IMG/VR virus record: IMGVR_UViG_3300014208_000006
Location: 1,557-65,556 of that record
Strand: one strand, 5' to 3'
DNA length: 64,000 bases
Source: a virus
Lineage: Duplodnaviria > Caudoviricetes
The notes under the pieces were generated by a model that saw only the letters and a program-made list of their open reading frames with translations, searched no databases and was not told where the DNA came from. Positions 1 to 64,000 of this stretch are shown here, piece by piece. Position 1 is the stretch's first letter. Every line of letters starts with the position of its first letter. Made by a program: the position numbers and the translations under genes.

Positions 1-421
1 CTATCTGCGAATTCAGGGCATCGGCCTTGGCGCTGGCATCGGCGTATAGCTTGCGTGCCTCGTCGGCCCGGCCCTGGGCGAAGAGGGTTTCCCGCTCGGC
101 GGCGGCGGCACGATCCTCGGGCGACACGGCCACGCTGCCGAGCAGCCGCAGGCTGAAGGTGATCTCGGCCTCGATGATGATCTGCTGGGGGGATTTCGGG
201 GCGGCCTTGTTCTGCCGGTCAACGACCTCCATGGAGGCGGCCAGCTTGGAATCGCGCTCCGCTTGCGCCTTCGCGACGGCGGCCGCAGCCTGGGCGGCTT
301 CATCGACGGCAACGACGACCGGGGCCAGCACCGTGGGATTGGCCGGGGGCGTAACGGGCTGCTGCGTCTTGCACGACGCCAAGAGCAGCAAGCAGGCGAG
401 AATGAGGCGCGGGGCTTTCAT
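1..421 (-). CDS. Lipoprotein with coiled coil (spanin-like candidate), truncated by window edge
   Basis: Not in ORF track; read manually from ATG 421: MKAPRLILACLLLLASC (lipobox), then Pro-rich linker and helical A/E/K-rich region; open to position 1; ATGA overlap with upstream gene. Confidence 0.6.
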   Translation of the reverse strand, partial: MKAPRLILACLLLLASCKTQQPVTPPANPTVLAPVVVAVDEAAQAAAAVAKAQAERDSKLAASMEVVDRQNKAAPKSPQQIIIEAEITFSLRLLGSVAVSPEDRAAAAERETLFAQGRADEARKLYADASAKADALNSQI

Positions 422-954
422 GGCTTTACGGGCGCCCATACAAATTGAACGTTCTTGCCAGTGGCGCGTGCCACGTAGTTGTCGGGCGTCACCCAAGGGC
501 GGTCAGCCTTCGGGTTGGTCTCGGGGTTGTCCCCCTGCGCAATCCAGTTGCCGGCCTGCTTGGCAACGAGGCGGTGCAGGGTGAACTTGCCGGTGCCGCG
601 AAGGTAGTCCCAGAACACAACAATATCGCCCTGCTTCAGTTGGTCGAAGGTCACGCCGATTTCGATTTCAGCAAGCCCGGCCTCGGGGAGAGTCGGCAGC
701 ATGGACTTGCCCGTATAGGGAATCCATGCGGCAAGCGTCGGCTTCGGGGTGGTGGTCGGAATCTCCCGCTTGGAGCAACCGAACGCCACGGCCAGAATCA
801 GCACCGCAAGCGCCACGCTGATGACCACGCGGGCGATCAGCTTGTTGTCGCGGTTGAACATCAGCCAGCGGCTTGCGCGCTTCATCCACGGAAAAGCGTC
901 GCGTGGAACGAGCCACCCGAGCACGAATCCGAGGATGAAGGCGGCTGCGGTCAT
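418..954 (-). CDS. S26 family signal peptidase I-like protease (Ser-His, SipW/Sec11 type)
   Basis: GKSMLPTL (catalytic Ser box), LKQGDIVVF, LHRLV (His general base), QGDN..D; N-terminal hydrophobic segments; start taken at MTAAAF. Confidence 0.75.
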   Translation of the reverse strand: MTAAAFILGFVLGWLVPRDAFPWMKRASRWLMFNRDNKLIARVVISVALAVLILAVAFGCSKREIPTTTPKPTLAAWIPYTGKSMLPTLPEAGLAEIEIGVTFDQLKQGDIVVFWDYLRGTGKFTLHRLVAKQAGNWIAQGDNPETNPKADRPWVTPDNYVARATGKNVQFVWAPVKP

Positions 955-961
955 GGCCTGC

Positions 962-1363
962 TCAGTCGGCCCGCTCGTAGAAGCCATCCAGCTCGAAGAT
1001 GGTAACGAGCGCCAAATCCTCCTCGCTGAGCAGTGGATCACCCACGGCGGTGACGACGTGAAACGGGTTCAGGTGTTCCGTGTCGGAAGGCAGGTAGTAG
1101 GCCGGGGTATTCTCGGCGGTGGCCGCGACGGTCCACTTGCGCGACACATAGGGATGCACGGACTGCTCCATGAGCGTCGTGTTGTGCTCGATGCAGTATT
1201 CCGTTGGCACGGCCTGAGGGTCAGCCGGGTCGGCGTTCTGCATGACCTGGCCCCATGTCCAGCCGTAGCCGCCATCGCAGAGCTTGACGAAAACGCCGAG
1301 GCGCTTTGTGAGGTGAATAAGTTGATCGAGATTGTTGGACTTAAACCATGTGACGTTTGACAT
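962..1363 (-). CDS. Hypothetical protein
   Basis: 133-aa ORF co-oriented in late operon. Confidence 0.6.
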   Translation of the reverse strand: MSNVTWFKSNNLDQLIHLTKRLGVFVKLCDGGYGWTWGQVMQNADPADPQAVPTEYCIEHNTTLMEQSVHPYVSRKWTVAATAENTPAYYLPSDTEHLNPFHVVTAVGDPLLSEEDLALVTIFELDGFYERAD

Positions 1364-4785: not shown

Positions 4786-5076
4786 TCAGGCCTTTCCCGT
4801 CCGCTCGCGTTCCTTCTCCGCTCGGTTCACTTCACCCTCGAGGGAAGTCAGGAGCGTTTTCAAAATCTTCTCGGGGGTGTGGTTCTCGACCAGGAACTGC
4901 CGGGCCCGGACGAGCAGCTCGCGTTCACCTGTCGGCGTCTCGGGGTTAAATATCTTGGCGTCGATGGACTGCCCCATGACTTCCTTCTGCCTGGCGCAGT
5001 AGACGGGCCACCCGGGGTTATGCTCGAGGCTGTTCAGGGCCATCAGGCGCCCCTTGGGGTTGGTTTCTTCAGACAT
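4786..5076 (-). CDS. Hypothetical protein downstream of portal
   Basis: MSEETNPK... 96 aa, overlaps portal stop. Confidence 0.6.
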   Translation of the reverse strand: MSEETNPKGRLMALNSLEHNPGWPVYCARQKEVMGQSIDAKIFNPETPTGERELLVRARQFLVENHTPEKILKTLLTSLEGEVNRAEKERERTGKA

Positions 5077-7135
5077 TGGCGGTTGCGGTTGCGGCTGGGG
5101 TTGGCTGGGCAAAAGGCACCACGGCGCCACCTTCGGCAGGAGCGGCAGGCTGCCCGCCCTCCCCTCCTTCCTGTTTCTCGGTGGCCGGGGCGGCAGCCGG
5201 CGGCATGGGCATGCCCGGAGTGACCGGAACCATCGTCATCTGCCCAGTAAGCGGATCCACGGCAGGCATCATCGGCGGCGGCAGCAACGTCTCCACGTCG
5301 TCATGCCCGAGCAGGAACAGGATGCTTTTCATCACCGGCCTGACAATGGCCTGGAACTGCGGCGGATAGCTGATGTATTCCTTGATCGTCTGCAGGGTGA
5401 GCTGCTGTTCCTGCAGCTTCTGCGTGGAATTGTCCTTCGAGATGATCAGCCGGGCATTCACCATCATGTCCTTGACGGACTGCTCGGTGATGAAGCCCAT
5501 CTGCGTCGTGTCGCCTTCGAGGTAGGTGTAAACCTCCTCCGGGTTCATCGTCGCCAGGGCGATCTGCACGAGCTTTGTCAGGTGGTCCTCCAGCCCCCGG
5601 GTGACTCTGCGGGTCCAGCGTTTCGAAAGCTTGCTGGCCTCCTTGAGCGAAGCCTCCTGCCCGCCCAGCGTGGTGTTCTGCGGAACGTCCGAGTAGTCGC
5701 CGCGGGCGATATTCGAAATTCCGAGCCAGAAATAGACCCATGCAATCGCCTTGTCGATCATCTCGTCCGTGTCGGAGTCGGCATTCGGGATGACGAAAGC
5801 CTGCAGCCAGTCCTGCATCGTCTTGCCGTGCTCGAGGGTGACGACTTCGAACGGCTGCATGTCGAGGAACGACTTCCGCTCAACGATGGCGTCCGGGTTC
5901 TGGCCGAGAATGGGGTTCGCGTTGATGGAGTTGCGGAACGACTTCCGGTTCCATTGCTTGTCGATATACTCCTGGAATGGAGCCATCATCTCGGGCATCG
6001 ACGGGCCCCACCAGAATTTCTTGTGCTTGCAGACCGCCGTGACCGTGTAGGGGTGGCGACCGTGCGGCGTGACCTTCTTCTGGAATTCGTAGTCGATCAG
6101 GGTTTCGCTCTTCGGCTCCCACCAGACGACGACGCGCTGCGGGGTGCCCCAGCCGAGAATATCGCGCTCAACCCAGCACTCCACGATCCCGAAGGATGCG
6201 CTGTCCATGTCGAACGCCTTCGCCTCCTTGGCGATCTTCTTGCGGGAGTCCTGCGTCTTGCGGCCGGCGCCGGCGTTGCGGACATTCGACTCAAAATCCT
6301 TCCACTTCATCCATTCGCGATCGAGAAAGCGGGCCTTCACCCAATGCGCGGGCTTGTCGTAGAACTCGGCGATACAGTCCGCCTCGTCCGGAGAGCGCAG
6401 GTCGGTGGGGATCAGGATGCAGTCACTGTCAACCTCCCGCGACTTCGGGCCTGAGTAGAAGATGTCCTTGAAGCGAACCGGCTTTTTGAGCGGCGCGAAG
6501 TAGTATTTCTGCGGGTCCGTCGGATCCAGCGTCAGGGTCGGATCGGCCTCGAGCGCCATGACCGGGCCGGAAATCGGGTCAACTACCTCGATGAACTTGT
6601 CCCGCCCCTCGATGACATAGCCGTGTTCGAGGATGAGCACCGGCTCCTGGTCCTTGGCTGCGTGTAGCACGCTGACATCGTGCTCCTCCCACATGTCGAA
6701 GTCCTCGTCGTAGATGGCCTTGAGGAATTGCGCGCGGTGCCGGAAAAGCGAATGGTTGGACTCGAGCAGGTCGTCCCGGACCTTGCCCTGCTTGAACAGC
6801 TTGTAGTTGGCAAAGCGGTCGAGTCCGCGGGCGGTGTCCTGGTCGGCCGGACCCTCGGGCCCGAAGTTGCACATTGGCGAGCGGCCATAAACCTCCTCCT
6901 CGGTCCGCGCGCTGAAATGGTCAACGACGGTGGACGTGAGGGGGATCGGCATATTAGATTCGGCGAATATGCCTCCCTGCTTGGCGCGCTCGGCCTTGGA
7001 ATTCTCGTAGTCTTTGTCCGAAACCTTGTCCGCCTCGATGCGCTCACGGTTGTCCTGCTTCAATTCAACCAGCCGAGTTTTCAGCCAGAGCTTGAACTTA
7101 GCCTCGTGCTCCTGTGTTAGCCGCAGATGTCGCAT
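5069..7135 (-). CDS. Portal protein (podovirus-type head-tail connector)
   Basis: 688 aa; WVERD..GWG, GRHPY, WWGPSMPEMM.PFQEYID..WN...INANP, LGISNIARG, TTLGG motifs typical of portals. Confidence 0.8.
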   Translation of the reverse strand: MRHLRLTQEHEAKFKLWLKTRLVELKQDNRERIEADKVSDKDYENSKAERAKQGGIFAESNMPIPLTSTVVDHFSARTEEEVYGRSPMCNFGPEGPADQDTARGLDRFANYKLFKQGKVRDDLLESNHSLFRHRAQFLKAIYDEDFDMWEEHDVSVLHAAKDQEPVLILEHGYVIEGRDKFIEVVDPISGPVMALEADPTLTLDPTDPQKYYFAPLKKPVRFKDIFYSGPKSREVDSDCILIPTDLRSPDEADCIAEFYDKPAHWVKARFLDREWMKWKDFESNVRNAGAGRKTQDSRKKIAKEAKAFDMDSASFGIVECWVERDILGWGTPQRVVVWWEPKSETLIDYEFQKKVTPHGRHPYTVTAVCKHKKFWWGPSMPEMMAPFQEYIDKQWNRKSFRNSINANPILGQNPDAIVERKSFLDMQPFEVVTLEHGKTMQDWLQAFVIPNADSDTDEMIDKAIAWVYFWLGISNIARGDYSDVPQNTTLGGQEASLKEASKLSKRWTRRVTRGLEDHLTKLVQIALATMNPEEVYTYLEGDTTQMGFITEQSVKDMMVNARLIISKDNSTQKLQEQQLTLQTIKEYISYPPQFQAIVRPVMKSILFLLGHDDVETLLPPPMMPAVDPLTGQMTMVPVTPGMPMPPAAAPATEKQEGGEGGQPAAPAEGGAVVPFAQPTPAATATANV

Positions 7136-7142
7136 TTACGGC

Positions 7143-7180
7143 ATCCTGCCCAATCCTAGCCCGTTTTGGGCGGTTGCATT
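7143..7180 (-). promoter_or_regulatory. Late promoter motif copy B (portal, leaderless)
   Basis: AATGCAACCGCC, CAGGAT at positions 33-38, portal ATG 7 nt further. Confidence 0.55.
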
Positions 7181-7709
7181 ACCGCGTGGATGGGTGCTCT
7201 CCGTAAAGCTTTATCTCCATGCCCCTACGCCAAGAAACTACTGCCGCGAGGTAGATAGATGTCCATTCATACCTAGCGCCGTCCTTTTCGATCTGCGCTT
7301 TATACCTCAACGCCCCGCGGTTTCTGGTGGCAACAACCCCATACGGCAGGTGTTTGTATATCGTCCCGCGCTTAACCCCCTGATTGAACACATTCAGGGA
7401 TCGTGAAGCCGCCCGGAGATTATTCGCGCGGTTGTTGGTTTTGTTTGTATCTCGGTGATCAACCTCGTCGGGCATCTCGCCCGTGTGGAGGAAATAGGCA
7501 ATTCGGTGGACGAGCATGTTGTAAAACCTGCCATTAACAGTCAGACCCGCCTGAAGGTATCCGCTGGTCTTCATGCTCACCACGGGGCCCGGCTTCCCGA
7601 ATCTCCCGGAGGTAGCCACAATACGGCGAACCACGCCCGTATCTGGGTTGTAATCGAAGCAGCGCCTAATTTCGGTCTGCAGTTCTACCGGCCAAGTAAT
7701 TGCTTTCAT
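7179..7709 (-). CDS. HNH homing endonuclease
   Basis: FDYNPDTG, HRIAYFLHTG..VDHRD.NKTNNRANNLRAA. Confidence 0.85.
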   Translation of the reverse strand: MKAITWPVELQTEIRRCFDYNPDTGVVRRIVATSGRFGKPGPVVSMKTSGYLQAGLTVNGRFYNMLVHRIAYFLHTGEMPDEVDHRDTNKTNNRANNLRAASRSLNVFNQGVKRGTIYKHLPYGVVATRNRGALRYKAQIEKDGARYEWTSIYLAAVVSWRRGMEIKLYGEHPSTR

Positions 7710-7712
7710 GGT

Positions 7713-7949
7713 TCAAAAACTCGGCCTTGGGGTGTGGCGTGTGTCAACATAGTGCGCAATCATGCTCAAAGCCGCCGGCGCCATTTCTTCAAACGACCCC
7801 CACCCTTCGACCTCGCCGCAGACGGCCTGGATGATGAATTCTTCTTCGCTGGCCCGGACAGATGAGGCCATGAGCTTGATCTGGCGAAGCTGTGCCCGCG
7901 TGAAACGAACGATTACCGGTTGGAGTGGTGAGGATTTAGGATTATTCAT
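7713..7949 (-). CDS. Small DNA-binding protein (ribbon-helix-helix-like)
   Basis: VIVRFTRAQLRQIK..AS...SEEEFIIQAV pattern; divergent from XRE gene. Confidence 0.5.
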   Translation of the reverse strand: MNNPKSSPLQPVIVRFTRAQLRQIKLMASSVRASEEEFIIQAVCGEVEGWGSFEEMAPAALSMIAHYVDTRHTPRPSF

Positions 7950-8047
7950 ATGTGCTAGACCTAGTTATTCTTCTATGTTGGAACGTCAAGTCTTTTGCTA
8001 CACATTTTGTTTGACCCTAGCTATTTCGCTATCTAGGAAAGAAACCT
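7950..8047. promoter_or_regulatory. AT-rich divergent promoter region of moron
   Basis: TTGACC-17-TAGGAA on + and TTGACG-16-TAACTA on -; several CTAG palindromes. Confidence 0.35.
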
Positions 8048-8281
8048 ATGCAGGCAACAATGACCCCAAATCTCGTGAGTGCAGCCCGTAGCCTTCTCGG
8101 TTTATCTCAGGACGATCTCGCCAAACTCTCAGGCGTCAGCCGGGCCTCCATATCGAACTTCGAGCGGTCGGCCAGTGGTCTGATTGCACAGAACCGAAAG
8201 GCCGTGATCTCAAGCCTGGAAGCCGCGGGTATTGAATTCATCGAGGGAGGGGTGCGGCTTAAGCCGAAGGGGAAGAAGTGA
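8048..8281 (+). CDS. XRE-family HTH regulator
   Basis: AARSLLGLSQDDLAKLSGVSRASISNFER..LEAAGIEFI. Confidence 0.85.
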   Translation: MQATMTPNLVSAARSLLGLSQDDLAKLSGVSRASISNFERSASGLIAQNRKAVISSLEAAGIEFIEGGVRLKPKGKK

Positions 8282-8988
8282 AACGTATCCTGCTATTTTC
8301 TGCGCTGATTTCTGTCTGCTTGGCTCAGTCTGGTTCTGTTGCGGAATCCAACGAAAGAATCCGTCTTGATTTTGAGCAAAGGATGCGAGAGCGGGAGCAG
8401 TATCGCAGGGATTCCGAACGAAGGATTGAAGAGATTAAGCAGAGGGAAAAACTCCGCCGAGCGAACGAGCAATCGAGTGCGGCGCGAGAACAGGCACAGC
8501 AGGCGCAGGCTTCCGCTGACGAAGCGAACGTTCGGCTCGAACAGCTTGAATCGCGACTGGATGCGCAGGCGCGTCGCATGAATGAGTCCATTCCGCTTGA
8601 AACCTATCCCGGTGTCCTTGCCCGTCGCCTGCAAGACGGCGGAGTCTCGGCCTCGATCAATGGCTCTGCCATGCGTTTTGATAATCCCTCTGCCTACAAC
8701 CAGTATGTAGCCGGATTGGAGGCTGACCGAAAGCAACGCGCGGCCGAAGACGAACGCCGGCGTGTCGAGTATGAGAATGGCGTTAACGCGGCACGAGACC
8801 GCGCGTTCAAGAAATACCCTGTGTTCGCCGACGACAACAGCCTTGAGCGTCTAGCTCTTGATTCCTACGTCACCCGCTTTCTCAACAACGAGGCGAACAA
8901 ACCATACTTTCAGGATTCAAGCTGGCCGGAGAAAATCGCGGACCAATTCGCCGAAGCTTATCGGATCGGTCCGAATGGGCGGAAATAG
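8278..8988 (+). CDS. Sec-signal protein with coiled coil and a C-terminal scaffold-paralogous domain
   Basis: MKRILLFSALISVCLAQS signal; C-terminal 62 aa match 63320-63505 at 36/62 identities, ungapped. Confidence 0.75.
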   Translation: MKRILLFSALISVCLAQSGSVAESNERIRLDFEQRMREREQYRRDSERRIEEIKQREKLRRANEQSSAAREQAQQAQASADEANVRLEQLESRLDAQARRMNESIPLETYPGVLARRLQDGGVSASINGSAMRFDNPSAYNQYVAGLEADRKQRAAEDERRRVEYENGVNAARDRAFKKYPVFADDNSLERLALDSYVTRFLNNEANKPYFQDSSWPEKIADQFAEAYRIGPNGRK

Positions 8989-26906: not shown

Positions 26907-27496
26907 GGGGTTTTCCTCTTCAGCCTGAACGGAACTCGCGGGGCCCACTCCTTCCACGGCTTCTCCTCCCTGATCATCGCCCGCGCCTCTATCCCGGGAT
27001 TGTGCGCCACGACATAGGCCCAGGTCTCCGGGTGCATCTTCAACACCGGGTATTCCACCGTTTTCTTGTAAGCCTCCATGTTTGCCACCGCGCCAGCGCC
27101 CATGAGAAGCATCTGCTGAAACACCAGAGGATGCGGCCGATAATTCTCCGCCCGGGCCCGCCACTTCCTCCGAATCCTCCGCTTCTTCGACCGCGGCCGC
27201 CGAAAATACTGCATCAGCGTCTCGTCCAGGATCAGGAAGAATTTGCCGGAATTTTGGTCCGGATTTTTTTGCGCAATATTTCCGGCGGGGACTCCCATCG
27301 CCGCGTCCCTCATCGAATCCAAAAAGCGAATCGTCTCAGCGTTCGGCCTGGGCATCACCATCTCCTGCAGCCTATCCACCACCGCGAACGCCTTCGGGAA
27401 AACGATCTCAGGATTTTCACTCGGAATTTTTTTGCCCAAATCGTTCCTTTGGGACTCCGGTTCGGAAATGGGTTTCGGATTTTCCATGGTGTTCAT
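26903..27496 (-). CDS. Hypothetical protein
   Basis: 197 aa with basic RSKKRRIRRKWR segment. Confidence 0.55.
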   Translation of the reverse strand: MNTMENPKPISEPESQRNDLGKKIPSENPEIVFPKAFAVVDRLQEMVMPRPNAETIRFLDSMRDAAMGVPAGNIAQKNPDQNSGKFFLILDETLMQYFRRPRSKKRRIRRKWRARAENYRPHPLVFQQMLLMGAGAVANMEAYKKTVEYPVLKMHPETWAYVVAHNPGIEARAMIREEKPWKEWAPRVPFRLKRKTP

Positions 27497-28143
27497 TTGC
27501 TTTGCGCCTCCGGGAAATTCAGCCGCGCGAACTCGCCATGGTGCTTCAGGGCAAGCGCGTCGTAGGCACGGGCGGCTTCCTCTTCTGTGCGAAAACGACC
27601 GTGGCGAATTCGTTTACCGCCATGGCTCATGTTCACTTCCCATCTGTTATTCTGCTGATTCCAGTGGACGCCTTTGAATCGGTTTTTGCTGCGCGTGTTT
27701 TTTACCCGGTTCGCACCGTTCTGGCTCTTTGTCGCAATCCGCAGATTCCCGCGCCAGTTGTGCAGGCGATTCCTGTCCTCGTGATCCGTCTCCAACCCCT
27801 GCGGTGTCCGAAGTATCAATCGGTGCATCACCGCTGGCTTACCACCAATCATCGCCTGAGCGTAACCGTCCTTGTTCACCCGCCAGGTGTAGCCCAGCAC
27901 CAACATCGCGTCCCCTTGACTCACGAAAATCGTTTCGGATTTTTTGGTCAGAATTTCCACGCATGGGACCCCGTTTTCAAAATGGGTCTCGGAAATTTTT
28001 GCGGAATTTTTTTTGTAGGGTCCTCCTGACGGAATGGGGGTGTGAGAAAGAGGGAGGAGGGGAGTCCCACAATCTCGCACGCACACTCCCGCGCTACGGG
28101 GTGACGAAATAAGGGCTGGGGGGGCTATCGGCGCGGGATTCAT
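27493..28143 (-). CDS. HNH-AP2 homing endonuclease (true start probably near 27990)
   Basis: MHRLIL..TDHEDRNRLHNWRGNLRIAT plus FKGVHW..RW..HGRFRTEEEAARAYD..HGEFARLNF (AP2). Confidence 0.88.
   Translation of the reverse strand: MNPAPIAPPALISSPRSAGVCVRDCGTPLLPLSHTPIPSGGPYKKNSAKISETHFENGVPCVEILTKKSETIFVSQGDAMLVLGYTWRVNKDGYAQAMIGGKPAVMHRLILRTPQGLETDHEDRNRLHNWRGNLRIATKSQNGANRVKNTRSKNRFKGVHWNQQNNRWEVNMSHGGKRIRHGRFRTEEEAARAYDALALKHHGEFARLNFPEAQSK
27960..28140. other. Candidate packaging (pac/cos) region
   Basis: G/C runs next to A/T tracts (GGAAATTTTTGCGGAATTTTTTTTG, GGGGGGG), downstream of terS; inference only. Confidence 0.3.
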
Positions 28144-51085: not shown

Positions 51086-51244
51086 AGCAAAACTGGCAAC
51101 ACATAGCGCCACACTTAGGAGCGCCACGGGCTATCACCCTAAACGGTGTTCGCTATATAGCGCTATACGCTTTTCGGTTTGCAATGTTCTTGCCTAAGTG
51201 ACGTTTTGAGGATTTGCCTAAGTTTTGCCCAAGGAGACGACGAT

Positions 51245-52519
51245 ATGCACGATGAATCCACCCAGTTCCTGACCCGAAATCTCAGCGTGTCCGTGTGGCG
51301 CGCACCCTTCGCCGACAAGACCGGCGCACAGTGCTGGGGCAATCAGTGGTATTGCCGGAAGATGGTCGCCGGGAAGTCCGTCCGGTTCCCGCTCGGCACC
51401 AATAAGCGCACCGCCGAGAAGCTGGCCGAAGAGATTACCGCGTTCCTGTCGATCCCGACCAACACCCTCGACATGGCGTTGGCGAAATACAACCCGCGCC
51501 GCGCCGCGCGCAACAACCACGTCGCGACGTTCACGGACATTGTGACCACTTACGAGAGCGCGCTGGGCATCATCGGCCGGAAGGGCAAGCCGGTCAGCGC
51601 GTCCAGCTTCAAGGGCTACAAATCGTTTCTGGCGTCCCTGCTCCGCAAGGTGGAGTCCTACCGGACCGGCAAGCCATTCGTGTCCTTCTTCGGAAAGAGC
51701 AACGTCGATTACTCGCCCTGGTTCGATCAGCCGACCGACATCCTTACGACGAAGTTCGCGATGGACTTCAAACTGGCGTCGATCCCGCAGGACGACGATG
51801 CCGACGAGGACGACATCCTGACGGCCAAGATCACCGCGGACACGACACTGCGCAATGCCCGCGCCTTCTTCTCCAAGATGGCTGTGCGCTACTACAAGGA
51901 GGTTGGGCTGAAGCTGCCGGACCTGAGCGGCTTCATGTCCGAGCCGGATTTCGGGGCGAAGCGCTACTTTGAGCTGCTTCCGGCTGAAGTGATCGTTGCC
52001 GTGATGCGCGCCTCGATCGAACTCAGGATTGCCGACGTGGACACCTACCGGGCGTTCCTGCTCTGCATGCACTGCGGGTTCCGCCGGGCCGAGGCAATCG
52101 CGTTCAAGCCCCATTGGCTCCGGCAGGACGACCGGCCCATGATTCACATTGTCGCCGGCGGAGACTTCAAGCCGAAGCACGGGCACAGCCGCAAGATCGT
52201 CATCGAGCAATGGGTGTTCGACCTGCTCAAGGAGCTCGGACCGGTGAAGGACACGGCATCGCTCGACAGGCTGAACGAATGGATGAAGGACTTGATCCCC
52301 GCGGAGTTTGCGGTCAGCAAGGCCGTGCATGAGATGCGCAAGCTCTTCATCAGCTTCAAGGCCAAGACCGAGGGCATCCATGCCGCGGCGAACCAGGCCG
52401 GGCATCGCGACGTGAAGGTGACGACTCAACACTATGCCGATTCGATGATGAGCGAGCGCCTACTTCCGCTCTGGAAGCAGCCGACGGAATCTGCTATCTT
52501 ACAATTCAAAATCGCATGA
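51245..52519 (+). CDS. int: Tyrosine integrase
   Basis: CGFRRAEA (R), KPKHG (K), HEMRK (HxxR), AGH..VTTQHY (H, Y). Confidence 0.9.
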   Translation: MHDESTQFLTRNLSVSVWRAPFADKTGAQCWGNQWYCRKMVAGKSVRFPLGTNKRTAEKLAEEITAFLSIPTNTLDMALAKYNPRRAARNNHVATFTDIVTTYESALGIIGRKGKPVSASSFKGYKSFLASLLRKVESYRTGKPFVSFFGKSNVDYSPWFDQPTDILTTKFAMDFKLASIPQDDDADEDDILTAKITADTTLRNARAFFSKMAVRYYKEVGLKLPDLSGFMSEPDFGAKRYFELLPAEVIVAVMRASIELRIADVDTYRAFLLCMHCGFRRAEAIAFKPHWLRQDDRPMIHIVAGGDFKPKHGHSRKIVIEQWVFDLLKELGPVKDTASLDRLNEWMKDLIPAEFAVSKAVHEMRKLFISFKAKTEGIHAAANQAGHRDVKVTTQHYADSMMSERLLPLWKQPTESAILQFKIA

Positions 52520-61511: not shown

Positions 61512-63020
61512 TTAGACGGCCGCGCGAATGTCAACCAGTTCCAGTTCCGGGTAATCCAGAGCGCCCTCGATGAGGAGGTAGTTCGGATACCGGCCCAGCG
61601 TGTCCTCAGCCGGCGAGTAGCCGACGATGGACTGAATGCCCTGCGCGTTGATGTGAGCCCGGCCGGAGGTCTTCGACTGGAAATCGTCGGCCCATTCGAT
61701 CGGGTCAGCCTCGAGCGCGCCCTTGCCCTTGAACAGCGCCTCGGCGCCCATCATCAGGCCGTAGGCAATCGGAACACCCCAGCGGTTGCAGGGGATGATC
61801 ATCGAGCCCGAGGGGTGCGCGTTGCTGTATTTGCCGGCCGCGGTCAGGATGGTCTTCTGCGTGTAGCCGACTTCATCCAACTCGCGGGTGACGACCGCCA
61901 GCTTGTTGCCGTTGTTCTGGGCGGCGGCATAGCTGATGACCTCATACTTGCCGCGGTCCGCACCGCTGACGTTGTAGATGATCGCGTAGTAGGTGTTGTT
62001 GTCGGTCGGCGCGGTCTCCGTTTCGTAGGTCTTCCAGTAGAAGCCGCGGAAGTAGGAGAAGAAGTCATACAGGCTGACATCGGTGAGGGACGCCGCAGTG
62101 TTCCAGGCGCCGCCGCCGGTGACTTCCGTGGCAGCGCCGTTCGCGAGCGCAACGCCAAGGTAGGCGATGGGGGCGAGCGGGGAACCCTGACGGTTCGGGC
62201 CGGAGTCAAACACGAGGTCGTGACCGAAGATCACGTTGTTCTTCCACACCGGGAGGCTGCCGGTCCACCAGTAGGCGCTTTCGCCGCGGGGCTGGTTGTT
62301 GTTCACCGCCTCGCGGAACGCCTGCTCGGAGTCGAGCGGGTCGAGGAACTTCTGCGGGGCGAAGACCAGGAACTGTGGGAGCTTCTGACCGGCCTTGCTG
62401 GTGTCGTATTTCATCGCCGTGGCACCGAGGCCGACAAGCTGATTGCGACCCTGGGTGATGACCGACGTGTTGAACGTGTCGTCCATCGTGATGTCGGTCA
62501 CGGTCGCTCCGCCGCCGATGCGCAGCACGTTGGGTTCGCTCGTGGCGAACAGAGCCTTGTCGCGCAGCACGAACTGGGAGTCGTCGCATTGCGTGCGGAC
62601 CCACCAATCGCGGCAGATGCCGAACAGGAACTCGTCGCGGTTCTTGTCCGCGTTGCCAGGCTGCGAGAAGTAGGCGATGAGCTGTTCCTCGGAGAGCGCA
62701 AAGCGGCGCAGGTCAACGGTCACGGGGAACGTGCCGTAGCGGACCTTTCCGGTCTTGCTCTTGAGTTCAGCCGAGCCCATCACGCCGCGACCGCGAACCG
62801 GGGCGTAGGTGCTGAAATGCACCACCTGCCCACCCAGCTTGCTCGTGTCGGTTTTCTCCACGATGGGCATGCCACTGCCCTCGGGACCGGTAAAATCCTT
62901 CAGGGGATTCATGTCCGAGGCGTCGGCTTTGACGCCTTCGGACCAAATCTCCATCTGGAGTTTGGGGTCGGCCGCTACCATGAGCGCCAACGTTTGGATT
63001 TCAGAGAGATCAAATGCCAT
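61512..63020 (-). CDS. Major capsid protein (N4 gp56-like)
   Basis: 502 aa; KTDTSK..G..V.FS..G.G..G..L; long strongly GC3-biased gene followed by terminator. Confidence 0.75.
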   Translation of the reverse strand: MAFDLSEIQTLALMVAADPKLQMEIWSEGVKADASDMNPLKDFTGPEGSGMPIVEKTDTSKLGGQVVHFSTYAPVRGRGVMGSAELKSKTGKVRYGTFPVTVDLRRFALSEEQLIAYFSQPGNADKNRDEFLFGICRDWWVRTQCDDSQFVLRDKALFATSEPNVLRIGGGATVTDITMDDTFNTSVITQGRNQLVGLGATAMKYDTSKAGQKLPQFLVFAPQKFLDPLDSEQAFREAVNNNQPRGESAYWWTGSLPVWKNNVIFGHDLVFDSGPNRQGSPLAPIAYLGVALANGAATEVTGGGAWNTAASLTDVSLYDFFSYFRGFYWKTYETETAPTDNNTYYAIIYNVSGADRGKYEVISYAAAQNNGNKLAVVTRELDEVGYTQKTILTAAGKYSNAHPSGSMIIPCNRWGVPIAYGLMMGAEALFKGKGALEADPIEWADDFQSKTSGRAHINAQGIQSIVGYSPAEDTLGRYPNYLLIEGALDYPELELVDIRAAV

Positions 63021-63055: not shown

Positions 63056-64000
63056 TTACCGGCGGGCGCCCGTTGAAGGTTTGAGAGACGCAATGATCGC
63101 CTTTCGGGCAGAGGGATCGCTGCGGACCGTTTCGAGAATGCTCTCGCGGGTCATGGGTCTCGGCGCGGAGGGCGTGCGCCCGTCGGCTCCGGTTAAGAGT
63201 TTTGCGCCCGTCGGGACCGCGCTGACTTGCACGGGGGCGGGCTTGGTGATCGCCACGGGGCGCGCGGGAGCGGCGGGCACAACCGGGACGGCCGGGGCAG
63301 CGCCCTCGGTCTTCGGCTTGATGCCATACTGCTTCGCGAAATCGCGGGCGAATCGGTCCGGCCAGGACGGATCCTGAAACTCGGACTTGCGCGCTGGATC
63401 GTTGAGGGCCTTCGTCACGGCGGCGTCGAGCGCAAGACGCTCCATGCCGTTCTCGTTGGCGAAGACAGGGAACTCGGCAAAAACACGGTCACGCGCGGCG
63501 TTGACCTTGCCGGTATAGTCGCCCTGCACGGCCTGATCACGATTGCGAAGGTAGCCCTTCTTCTCGTGACTCAGCAGCGATAGGTCGGCTTGGAGCTGTC
63601 CGATTTCCACAGTAAGACCGGCCACCTTGTCCGAGTCCATGTCGGCCGAAGCCGTTTTGAGCGCGGCGGTGAGTTCGGTCAGCTTGGTCTGCCCAGCAGT
63701 CAGACTGGTCTCGTATTCGGCAAGCTGCGGGTCCACGGCGGGCACGGCTGGCGTCGCGGGGGCAGCGGGTGCCACGGCGGGGCTGGAAGTGCCTTTGTAG
63801 AGCTCGGCGGCCTGGGCGAGCGAGATGCCCTTGCTTTTCGCCAGCACGGCAATCGCGTAGTCCTCACCGTGGAAGCGGATCCTGCCACCGTCCTTGCCTT
63901 CGCCTGCCTCGGGCTGGACCTCGGGGTTTGCACCCTCGGGATTCGGCTGGGCGGCTTCGGGCGTGGTAGCGGCCGGAGTCGATTCGGGGGACGCCGGCGC
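63056..64000 (-). CDS. Capsid scaffolding protein (5'-truncated)
   Basis: Frame open from window edge (315 codons); A/P-rich linkers and coiled coil; immediately upstream of MCP. Confidence 0.6.
   Translation of the reverse strand, partial: APASPESTPAATTPEAAQPNPEGANPEVQPEAGEGKDGGRIRFHGEDYAIAVLAKSKGISLAQAAELYKGTSSPAVAPAAPATPAVPAVDPQLAEYETSLTAGQTKLTELTAALKTASADMDSDKVAGLTVEIGQLQADLSLLSHEKKGYLRNRDQAVQGDYTGKVNAARDRVFAEFPVFANENGMERLALDAAVTKALNDPARKSEFQDPSWPDRFARDFAKQYGIKPKTEGAAPAVPVVPAAPARPVAITKPAPVQVSAVPTGAKLLTGADGRTPSAPRPMTRESILETVRSDPSARKAIIASLKPSTGARR

Follow-up and report, generated by a model that had tools for sequence, protein, structure and literature searches.

A new domain found in both a scaffold-type protein and a predicted exported moron protein of a temperate Opitutaceae podophage

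The locus between the portal and giant genes

In a temperate podophage of Opitutaceae (Verrucomicrobiota), a short cassette of reversed orientation lies within the late operon and includes a gene for a predicted exported protein (8278-8988). The C-terminal domain of this protein is also present in a scaffold-type protein encoded by the same phage next to its capsid gene. The window referred to below is the whole stretch of 64,000 nucleotides that was analysed (positions 1,557 to 65,556 of IMG/VR virus record IMGVR_UViG_3300014208_000006), and coordinates are given in it. The record is a virus contig of 65,556 bp, of which the window spans nearly all, and its 123-bp terminal repeats indicate that the phage genome is complete. 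The genes and features around the exported gene are as follows.

5069..7135, minus strand: portal protein, SU10 type, one flank of the insertion slot (Pfam SU10_portal 3.9e-14, phrog_1216)
7179..7709, minus strand: HNH endonuclease (Pfam HNH_3 2e-12, phrog_99 1e-32; GC content 0.54-0.55)
7713..7949, minus strand: open reading frame (ORF) of 78 aa, the rest of the low-GC insert (GC content 0.54-0.55)
7950..8047, no strand: AT-rich stretch separating the divergent 78-aa ORF and XRE gene, the presumed control region of the cassette
8048..8281, plus strand: 77-aa XRE-family helix-turn-helix gene, translationally coupled to the exported gene (Pfam HTH_3 3.3e-7)
8278..8988, plus strand: gene for the exported 236-aa protein, GTG start (ORF; full-length homologs P0002, P0003 and L104:9222-10115)
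8989..18432, minus strand: 3147-aa polyvalent internal-virion (ejected) protein, called the giant protein here (phrog_6651 'internal virion protein', phrog_11358 and others)

The insert (7179-8988, 1.8 kb) separates the giant gene from the portal gene. The late genes are on the minus strand, giant then portal, and the XRE and exported genes are on the plus strand. The stop codon of the giant gene abuts that of the exported gene. GC content in the insert is 0.54-0.57 and GC at third codon positions (GC3) is 0.58-0.64, compared with a GC3 of 0.77-0.85 in core genes such as those for the capsid and scaffold-type proteins. The exported ORF itself has a GC content of 0.55 and a GC3 of 0.58, in agreement with the earlier description, made from the window's letters and predicted ORFs (the original prediction), of an AT-richer cassette on the opposite strand behind an XRE regulator.

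The same junction differs between related phages. In prophage G278 the giant gene stops at 15262 and the match to the portal begins at 15323, about 60 bp away, with nothing between them. A related phage contig diverges from the window at 7187. In the phage of about 66 kb that encodes P0006, the slot between the giant and portal genes holds a single, different antisense gene of 182 aa. The empty slot, the point of divergence and the different gene together indicate that the cassette was inserted into a variable slot. Judged by its composition, orientation and absence from the related prophage, the exported gene is a moron, an accessory antisense insert in a late operon, as had been predicted. 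Morons were defined for lambdoid phages by Hendrix and colleagues. Like these, the cassette is extra DNA between genes that are adjacent in a relative, has an odd base composition, is reversed and has its own regulator. It differs in that lambdoid morons have a dedicated promoter and terminator, neither of which was recognised here, and in that its cargo, rather than being foreign in origin, is related to a morphogenesis gene of the phage itself.

Other rearrangements and mobile genes are found in this family of phages. A second HNH endonuclease gene (27493-28143, minus strand) also belongs to phrog_99 and also lies in a low-GC patch; it and the gene at 7179-7709 are probably both free-standing homing endonucleases. 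In prophage L103 (G069:C65:38000-57999) the block of scaffold, capsid, p167, p314 and p808 genes is inverted between the giant and portal genes, a rearrangement of the late region at the very junction where the window has its moron. A relative of about 65 kb has an antisense Acyl_transf_3 gene in its late region (L093:6840-7823, minus strand), which we take to be a typical O-antigen conversion moron.

The exported protein

The GTG start codon of the exported gene overlaps the stop codon of the XRE gene as GTGA, and a Shine-Dalgarno-like run (GGGGAAG) lies upstream of it. Public gene calls begin at Met36 (P0001, 201 aa), dropping 8278-8382 and with it the signal peptide. The homologs P0002 and P0003 (43-55% identity) align over the full length and keep an N-terminal signal peptide, and a 297-aa Opitutaceae protein (L104:9222-10115) also aligns over the full length with a signal peptide. 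The conservation of the full length and the signal peptide at 43-55% identity indicates that the gene is real. The following parts can be distinguished in the product; the slash in CLA/QS and A/Q marks the predicted cleavage site.

8278..8325, plus strand: predicted Sec signal peptide, residues 1-16 (MKR n-region, 13-residue uncharged core, CLA/QS cleavage motif)
8338..8589, plus strand: 84-residue charged helix, residues 21-104, a probable coiled coil or stalk (AlphaFold2 (AF2) model, predicted local distance difference test score (pLDDT) >90)
8614..8679, plus strand: small three-stranded beta unit, residues 113-134 (AF2; motif conserved in P0002, P0003 and P0022)
8749..8973, plus strand: shared C-terminal domain, residues ~158-232 (last part of a long helix, then three short ones)

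Signal peptides were called by inspection, from the n-region, a core of 7-15 residues and small residues at -3/-1. In P0002, P0003 and the L104 protein, the N-terminus begins with a basic n-region, which is followed by a short hydrophobic core and then by an x-A/Q motif. This motif recurs in P0002, P0003, P0005, P0015, P0021 and P0031, and the same layout is present in at least 8 homologous clusters. A core of 13 residues is too short to span a membrane, and it is therefore read as part of a cleavable signal peptide. The product is predicted to carry a cleavable Sec signal peptide with a signal peptidase I-type site. The Sec-type signal peptide that was proposed for this gene is thus visible by inspection and is conserved in homologs.

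The AF2 model of the exported protein (mean pLDDT 89.9) consists of the 84-residue helix, the beta unit, a second long helix and the three short helices. The beta unit is common only to the closest exported homologs. Foldseek searches of PDB and BFVD and a wide VIA-align search gave nothing below an E-value of 1e-3; the query was the whole model, and the match lists were dominated by the long helix, VIA-align matches to this part being generic coiled coils only. Searches of Pfam, PHROGs, NCBIfam and PADLOC with 20 exported members gave coiled-coil noise only. An ESM Atlas search with the domain gave chance-level scores, and PDB sequence searches with two profiles (A1 and A4) and with the 422-aa neighbour of the giant protein gave nothing meaningful.

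One weak PHROG match of the exported protein is to an Rz-like spanin (E 0.0045). It covers residues 6-104, which comprise the hydrophobic N-terminus and the coiled coil, and it would fit a lytic-cycle role of the protein's own at the envelope, for example as a spanin-like or lysis-timing protein. An i-spanin has an uncleaved membrane helix, whereas the 13-residue core followed by an A/Q cleavage motif does not provide a membrane anchor. There is also no ORF with a lipobox inside or beside the gene, nor one conserved in the related locus L004, the neighbours being genes for the XRE regulator and for virion proteins. The exported gene runs opposite to the late operon, which holds other membrane protein and lipoprotein candidates, and related prophages lack it. 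We consider a lytic role quite improbable. A proline-rich 42-aa ORF in the +1 frame (8582-8710) was considered as an embedded spanin partner and rejected, as it lacks a signal peptide and L004 has no equivalent of it.

A domain shared with the scaffold-type protein

The C-terminal domain of the exported protein is paralogous to a region of the protein whose gene immediately precedes the capsid gene, at the other end of the window.

63056..64000, minus strand: scaffold-type protein gene, C-terminal 314 of 429 aa in the window (crosses the record end)
63314..63538, minus strand: paralogous domain within the scaffold-type protein (BLASTP match)
61512..63020, minus strand: major capsid protein, N4-gp56 / DUF4043 type (Pfam Phage_capsid_3, phrog_334)

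The partner ORF is cut short at the edge of the window, which is also the end of the record; its complete product has 429 aa. BLASTP aligns residues 158-232 of the exported protein with residues 155-229 of the product of 63056-64000, free of gaps and with 39 identities in 75 positions (E 4e-24). Within this region a core of 62 aa (8782-8967 and 63320-63505, the latter on the minus strand) has 36 identities, as in the original prediction; with 20 shuffled versions of the partner protein, the best ungapped match of this length reached no more than 15. The synonymous differences claimed for five of the seven VNAARDR codons were likewise reproduced. In 83 aligned codons, 18 of the 39 identical residues use differing codons, and the DNA is 55% identical. 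The low DNA identity and the divergence of codons point to an old relationship at the protein level. The domain is thus a genuine old paralog, in keeping with the idea of an old duplication retained under selection on the protein. The phage genome has only two copies of the domain at E <= 0.01, and a tblastn search of it with residues 20-160 of the exported protein found no second paralogy.

The domain has the signature aSrDR..(Y/F)P.(F/L)A....S..R.aLDaYV.......DP.R...F..P.WPE..A.EFA. Both forms of the protein are constrained at the same positions, namely aSrDR, (Y/F)P, aLDaYV, DP, WPE and EFA.

Distribution of the domain

An exhaustive profile search of 1.84 billion representative proteins identified 68 clusters with the domain. 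About 50 of these are scaffold-type, including a few fragments; the full-length proteins have 330-430 aa, with the domain in the centre. These proteins evolve fast except in the domain, which is conserved best. In the remaining ~18 clusters the domain is C-terminal, sometimes in two or three copies, and the N-terminus is a signal peptide or a membrane anchor flanked by K/R. The K/R residues before the anchor place the domain outside the cytoplasm. Homologs of the exported form, a search for which the original prediction had suggested, were found, and the domain is rare. Pattern scans of IMG/VR and of species genomes (alignment A3) gave no confirmed relative, and a metagenome pattern scan recovered only a near-identical strain. 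Judged from these sequence searches, this is a new and unnamed domain of ~70 residues with a sharp signature.

The distribution bears on two further functions that were proposed for the exported protein, which could act in the cytoplasm, before or without export, as a decoy for a defence sensor or as a dominant-negative inhibitor of the assembly of rival capsids. Co-assembly of such a domain with scaffolds at 50-65% identity is conceivable. The exported protein is, however, without the C-terminal helix-turn-helix and the N-terminal module of the scaffold-type protein, and all 18 of the exported-type clusters that appear to be full length have a signal peptide or a membrane anchor, which would be pointless for a protein of the cytoplasm. 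A cytoplasmic role is highly improbable.

In a tree of the domain, the exported copy of the window groups with P0002 and P0003, exported copies of other phages (support 96), and not with the scaffold of its own phage, whose copy groups with other scaffolds. The tree needs 8 changes between the two labels, of which well-supported branches force only 1. It is compatible with differing numbers of origins and with either direction of reuse, and exported forms are also found as ordinary chromosomal genes in Opitutaceae.

The exported gene in hosts and decayed prophages

Among 401 sampled Opitutaceae genomes, six have the domain, with one copy each. In two of the six it is in scaffold-type proteins of prophages and in one it is in the L104 protein. 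The other three have a double-domain exported form among housekeeping genes, which include RsfS/NadD in one setting and riboflavin synthase/UDG/LeuRS in another.

These chromosomal genes could mean that the domain comes from the host, belonging to a rare periplasmic family of Verrucomicrobiota that an ancestral phage captured into a scaffold-type protein and sometimes carries as cargo. The stand-alone exported forms in three Opitutaceae chromosomes, at differing housekeeping loci, fit such an origin, as does a tree compatible with either direction. The balance of the clusters (~50 scaffold-type against ~18 exported, the former in phages of varied composition) fits it less well, as do the small number of Opitutaceae genomes with the domain and the position of several exported copies within prophages or at their edges. 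An origin in the host is unlikely.

The exported gene is found intact in three independent decayed prophages, next to shortened virion genes. In L003 it lies beside a giant gene shortened to 253 aa, after which the prophage ends at a tRNA gene. In L008 it lies beside a gene for a 664-aa chimera, composed of homologs of the 422-aa protein and of the N-terminus of the giant protein, which adjoins bacterial prfC and acetyltransferase genes. In L104 it lies beside a portal stub of 117 aa, between bacterial membrane-protein genes. The retention of an intact exported gene by hosts suggests a protective role at the envelope, as far as gene context can indicate. In the window, L004, L003 and L008 the exported gene adjoins the giant gene or its homologs.

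Two other exported-type members lie in settings that may be defensive or mobile. A member of 389 aa (contig P0020) is encoded directly downstream of a DarT gene and a gene of 364 aa, which suggests a defence-island neighbourhood. Another member lies in an integrase-bearing element.

The exported protein of L008 (P0005, L008:5906-6463) and the adjacent 664-aa protein (L008:7074-9068) have the sequence FRMTPGAHAIAN(D/E)ITRQS in common, with 17 of 18 residues identical. On comparison of the sequences, this second borrowing, between P0005 and the N-terminus of the giant protein, is not general.

The scaffold-type protein

The gene of the scaffold-type protein is directly upstream of the capsid gene in the window and in every relative examined (L007, L093, L094, L105, L103 and the P0006 contig). 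In the AF2 model of the 429-aa protein (pLDDT 81), a small helical unit at the N-terminus is followed by a helical hairpin and then by the shared domain, beyond which a disordered Pro/Ala linker leads to a basic helix-turn-helix at the C-terminus. The model is elongated and all-helical, with a separate putative capsid-binding end. Its structural neighbours in BFVD include many annotated scaffolding proteins, all at E-values above 1e-3. Searches of Pfam, PHROG and PDB sequences with the scaffold-type protein identified no named family, and the source annotations of ten scaffold-type clusters read 'hypothetical protein' only.

The position, the shape of the model and the weak structural neighbours indicate that the 429-aa protein is likely to be a capsid scaffold. 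The original prediction, which had called it a scaffold, is supported in these respects, and homology to a named scaffold family was not found in the Pfam, PHROG and PDB searches. The functional analogues P22 gp8, T7 gp9 and phi29 gp7 are likewise helical and elongated; the 429-aa protein differs from them in having no sequence homology that these searches detect. Its layout resembles that of P22 gp8, and the basic helix-turn-helix at its C-terminus is like the coat-binding end of that protein. We know of no exported paralog of any known scaffold.

The phage and its relatives

The phage is a temperate podophage of Opitutaceae with a capsid protein of the N4-gp56 type. The profile of the capsid protein matches a solved capsid structure (8h89_A, E 2.4e-13), and the genome also encodes a large terminase subunit and an integrase.

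51179..52519, plus strand: integrase (phrog_1 integrase, E 4e-15)

The presence of the integrase indicates that the phage is temperate. Prophage L094 terminates in a homolog of this integrase (58% identical) that adjoins bacterial genes, and relatives are found as prophages that adjoin tRNA-Phe or bacterial genes; in L003 the end is a tRNA-Phe gene beside fabF. The host genes that flank one relative have 89% identity to Oleiharenicola (Opitutaceae), and the source names of capsid homologs include Synoicihabitans and Planctomycetota. A tblastn search of 50,697 cultured phage records with the exported and capsid proteins gave no match.

An NPF motif lies close to each end of the giant protein and its homologs, as ...RNPF... 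at the N-terminus and as ...YNPFSVR at the C-terminus. L004 likewise has the C-terminal motif and L003 the N-terminal one, and L008 has related repeats. ARAGORN calls a tRNA-Met (CAT) within the coding sequence of the giant gene (17694-17768, minus strand).

A late-operon protein of 178 aa (418-954, minus strand) has weak matches to Peptidase_S24/S26 (E about 1e-3) and is adjoined by an ORF of 133 aa (962-1363, minus strand). Membrane proteins of 358 aa and 122 aa are encoded upstream of the scaffold gene. These four may form an envelope or lysis module.

A possible role in superinfection exclusion

The exported protein may be a periplasmic prophage factor, in which a scaffold-type domain acts against the ejected proteins of superinfecting relatives; our analysis leads us to put this forward tentatively, as quite possible and a little short of probable. 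The lysogen would make the protein with its Sec signal peptide and release it into the periplasm, where it would consist of a charged helical stalk and a small helical head. The copy of the domain in the scaffold would bind a phage protein while procapsids assemble in the cytoplasm. If this partner is one of the ejected proteins (the 3147-aa giant protein and its 422-aa neighbour), it would be the only kind of scaffold partner that later reaches the periplasm, which neither the capsid protein nor the portal nor the scaffold itself would traverse. The exported copy could then bind the injected proteins of a relative and block assembly of the conduit for DNA delivery, which would amount to superinfection exclusion. 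This line of reasoning follows from the domain being under the same constraints inside and outside the cytoplasm, so that a periplasmic copy could bind incoming ejected proteins. The retention of the gene by hosts, its position beside ejection-protein genes and its moron features are all consistent with such a role.

The steps have precedents in other phages. The scaffold of phage P22 is required to load ejection proteins. N4-like phages eject a giant protein together with a periplasmic tunnel protein (PMC11445570). The SieA protein of P22 blocks the conduit formed by ejection proteins (PMC10883804). Both SieA and the exported protein are encoded by temperate podophages, are located, or predicted to be located, at the envelope and are dispensable for growth of the phage, and the role proposed here is alike. 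SieA differs in being an integral inner-membrane protein with no similarity to virion proteins, whereas the exported protein carries a paralog of a morphogenesis domain and is, by prediction, a soluble protein of the periplasm. Searches of family libraries found no sequence relation between the two.

Other prophage-encoded surface proteins that block DNA entry or mask receptors include Ltp of Streptococcus phage TP-J34 and the Llp/Cor-type lipoproteins. These are lipobox lipoproteins and are not known to have a domain in common with the assembly proteins of their own phage. The exported protein is likewise prophage-encoded and has a signal peptide, but the site is of the signal peptidase I type. 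Like known exclusion proteins, it is borne by prophages, as seen from the integrase and the prophage contexts, and from its signal peptide it is predicted to be located at the envelope. Among the three functions suggested in the original prediction (superinfection exclusion, a decoy and an assembly inhibitor), superinfection exclusion fits best.

The domain might instead be reused without any mimicry of a virion contact. Scaffolding proteins commonly self-associate, and the exported protein may have the domain only for oligomerisation or helical packing, while it serves some other purpose in the periplasm, for example in modifying the envelope or in lysogenic conversion. This is in keeping with the two or three tandem copies of the domain in P0024, P0041 and L098-L100, with the chromosomal copies among housekeeping genes that have no phage genes nearby, and with the other opposite-strand morons of conversion type in relatives, such as the Acyl_transf_3 gene of L093. 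The polar and aromatic signature (RDR, DP, WPE) that is conserved in both forms resembles a putative binding site more than a packing core, and the exported gene repeatedly adjoins the genes of ejection proteins. For these reasons we regard a purely structural use of the domain as somewhat unlikely.

Several results weigh against a role in exclusion. A scan of the cassette for sigma-70-type promoters found none, with a consensus that does not cover verrucomicrobial promoters; a terminator scan gave only terminator-like sites at chance level, and because the stop codons of the convergent exported and giant genes abut, no terminator fits between them. Four sequencing runs that contain the phage are labelled 'RNA-Seq' and are probably DNA. 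None of the six matching Opitutaceae genomes has both forms of the domain, which indicates that the exported gene is dispensable to the phage, and the chromosomal exported copies may have a task in the host that has nothing to do with phages. The exported family has no matches to known exclusion or defence families in the family-library searches. A contact with the giant protein gains nothing from sequence comparison, since hhalign of an alignment of the giant N-terminus against the exported and scaffold alignments gave a probability below 1%, and BLASTP found no similarity between the exported protein of the window and the N-terminus of its own giant protein. The scaffold role of the 429-aa protein is itself an inference from position and from the shape of a model. 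For phage N4, no scaffold has been identified (PMC11445570).

The observation that a moron with an export signal carries a paralog of the scaffold-type domain is confirmed, and the interpretation placed on it is supported in part. In a wider form of the exclusion proposal, the shared module would be the cargo-recruiting domain of the scaffold in this N4-related phage lineage. Phages and their Opitutaceae hosts would repeatedly have gained a signal peptide or membrane anchor for it and so redeployed it to the periplasm as a trap for the ejected proteins of incoming relatives, an immunity mechanism derived from the assembly machinery of the phage and later domesticated as stand-alone genes in host chromosomes; this we consider doubtful.

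Implications

Whatever the function of the exported protein, the ~70-residue domain is new and has two mutually exclusive deployments, one cytoplasmic and one periplasmic. The analysis also shows that public gene calls can cut off a signal peptide, as they do for this gene. If the proposed role is correct, the protein would be the first exclusion factor with a recognition module paralogous to a head-assembly domain, and it would show which part of a scaffold recruits ejected proteins. It would likewise provide a candidate scaffold for capsids of the N4 type, for which none has been identified (PMC11445570). The family would then offer an entry into the conflict between phages and their hosts in Verrucomicrobiota, which has scarcely been studied by experiment.

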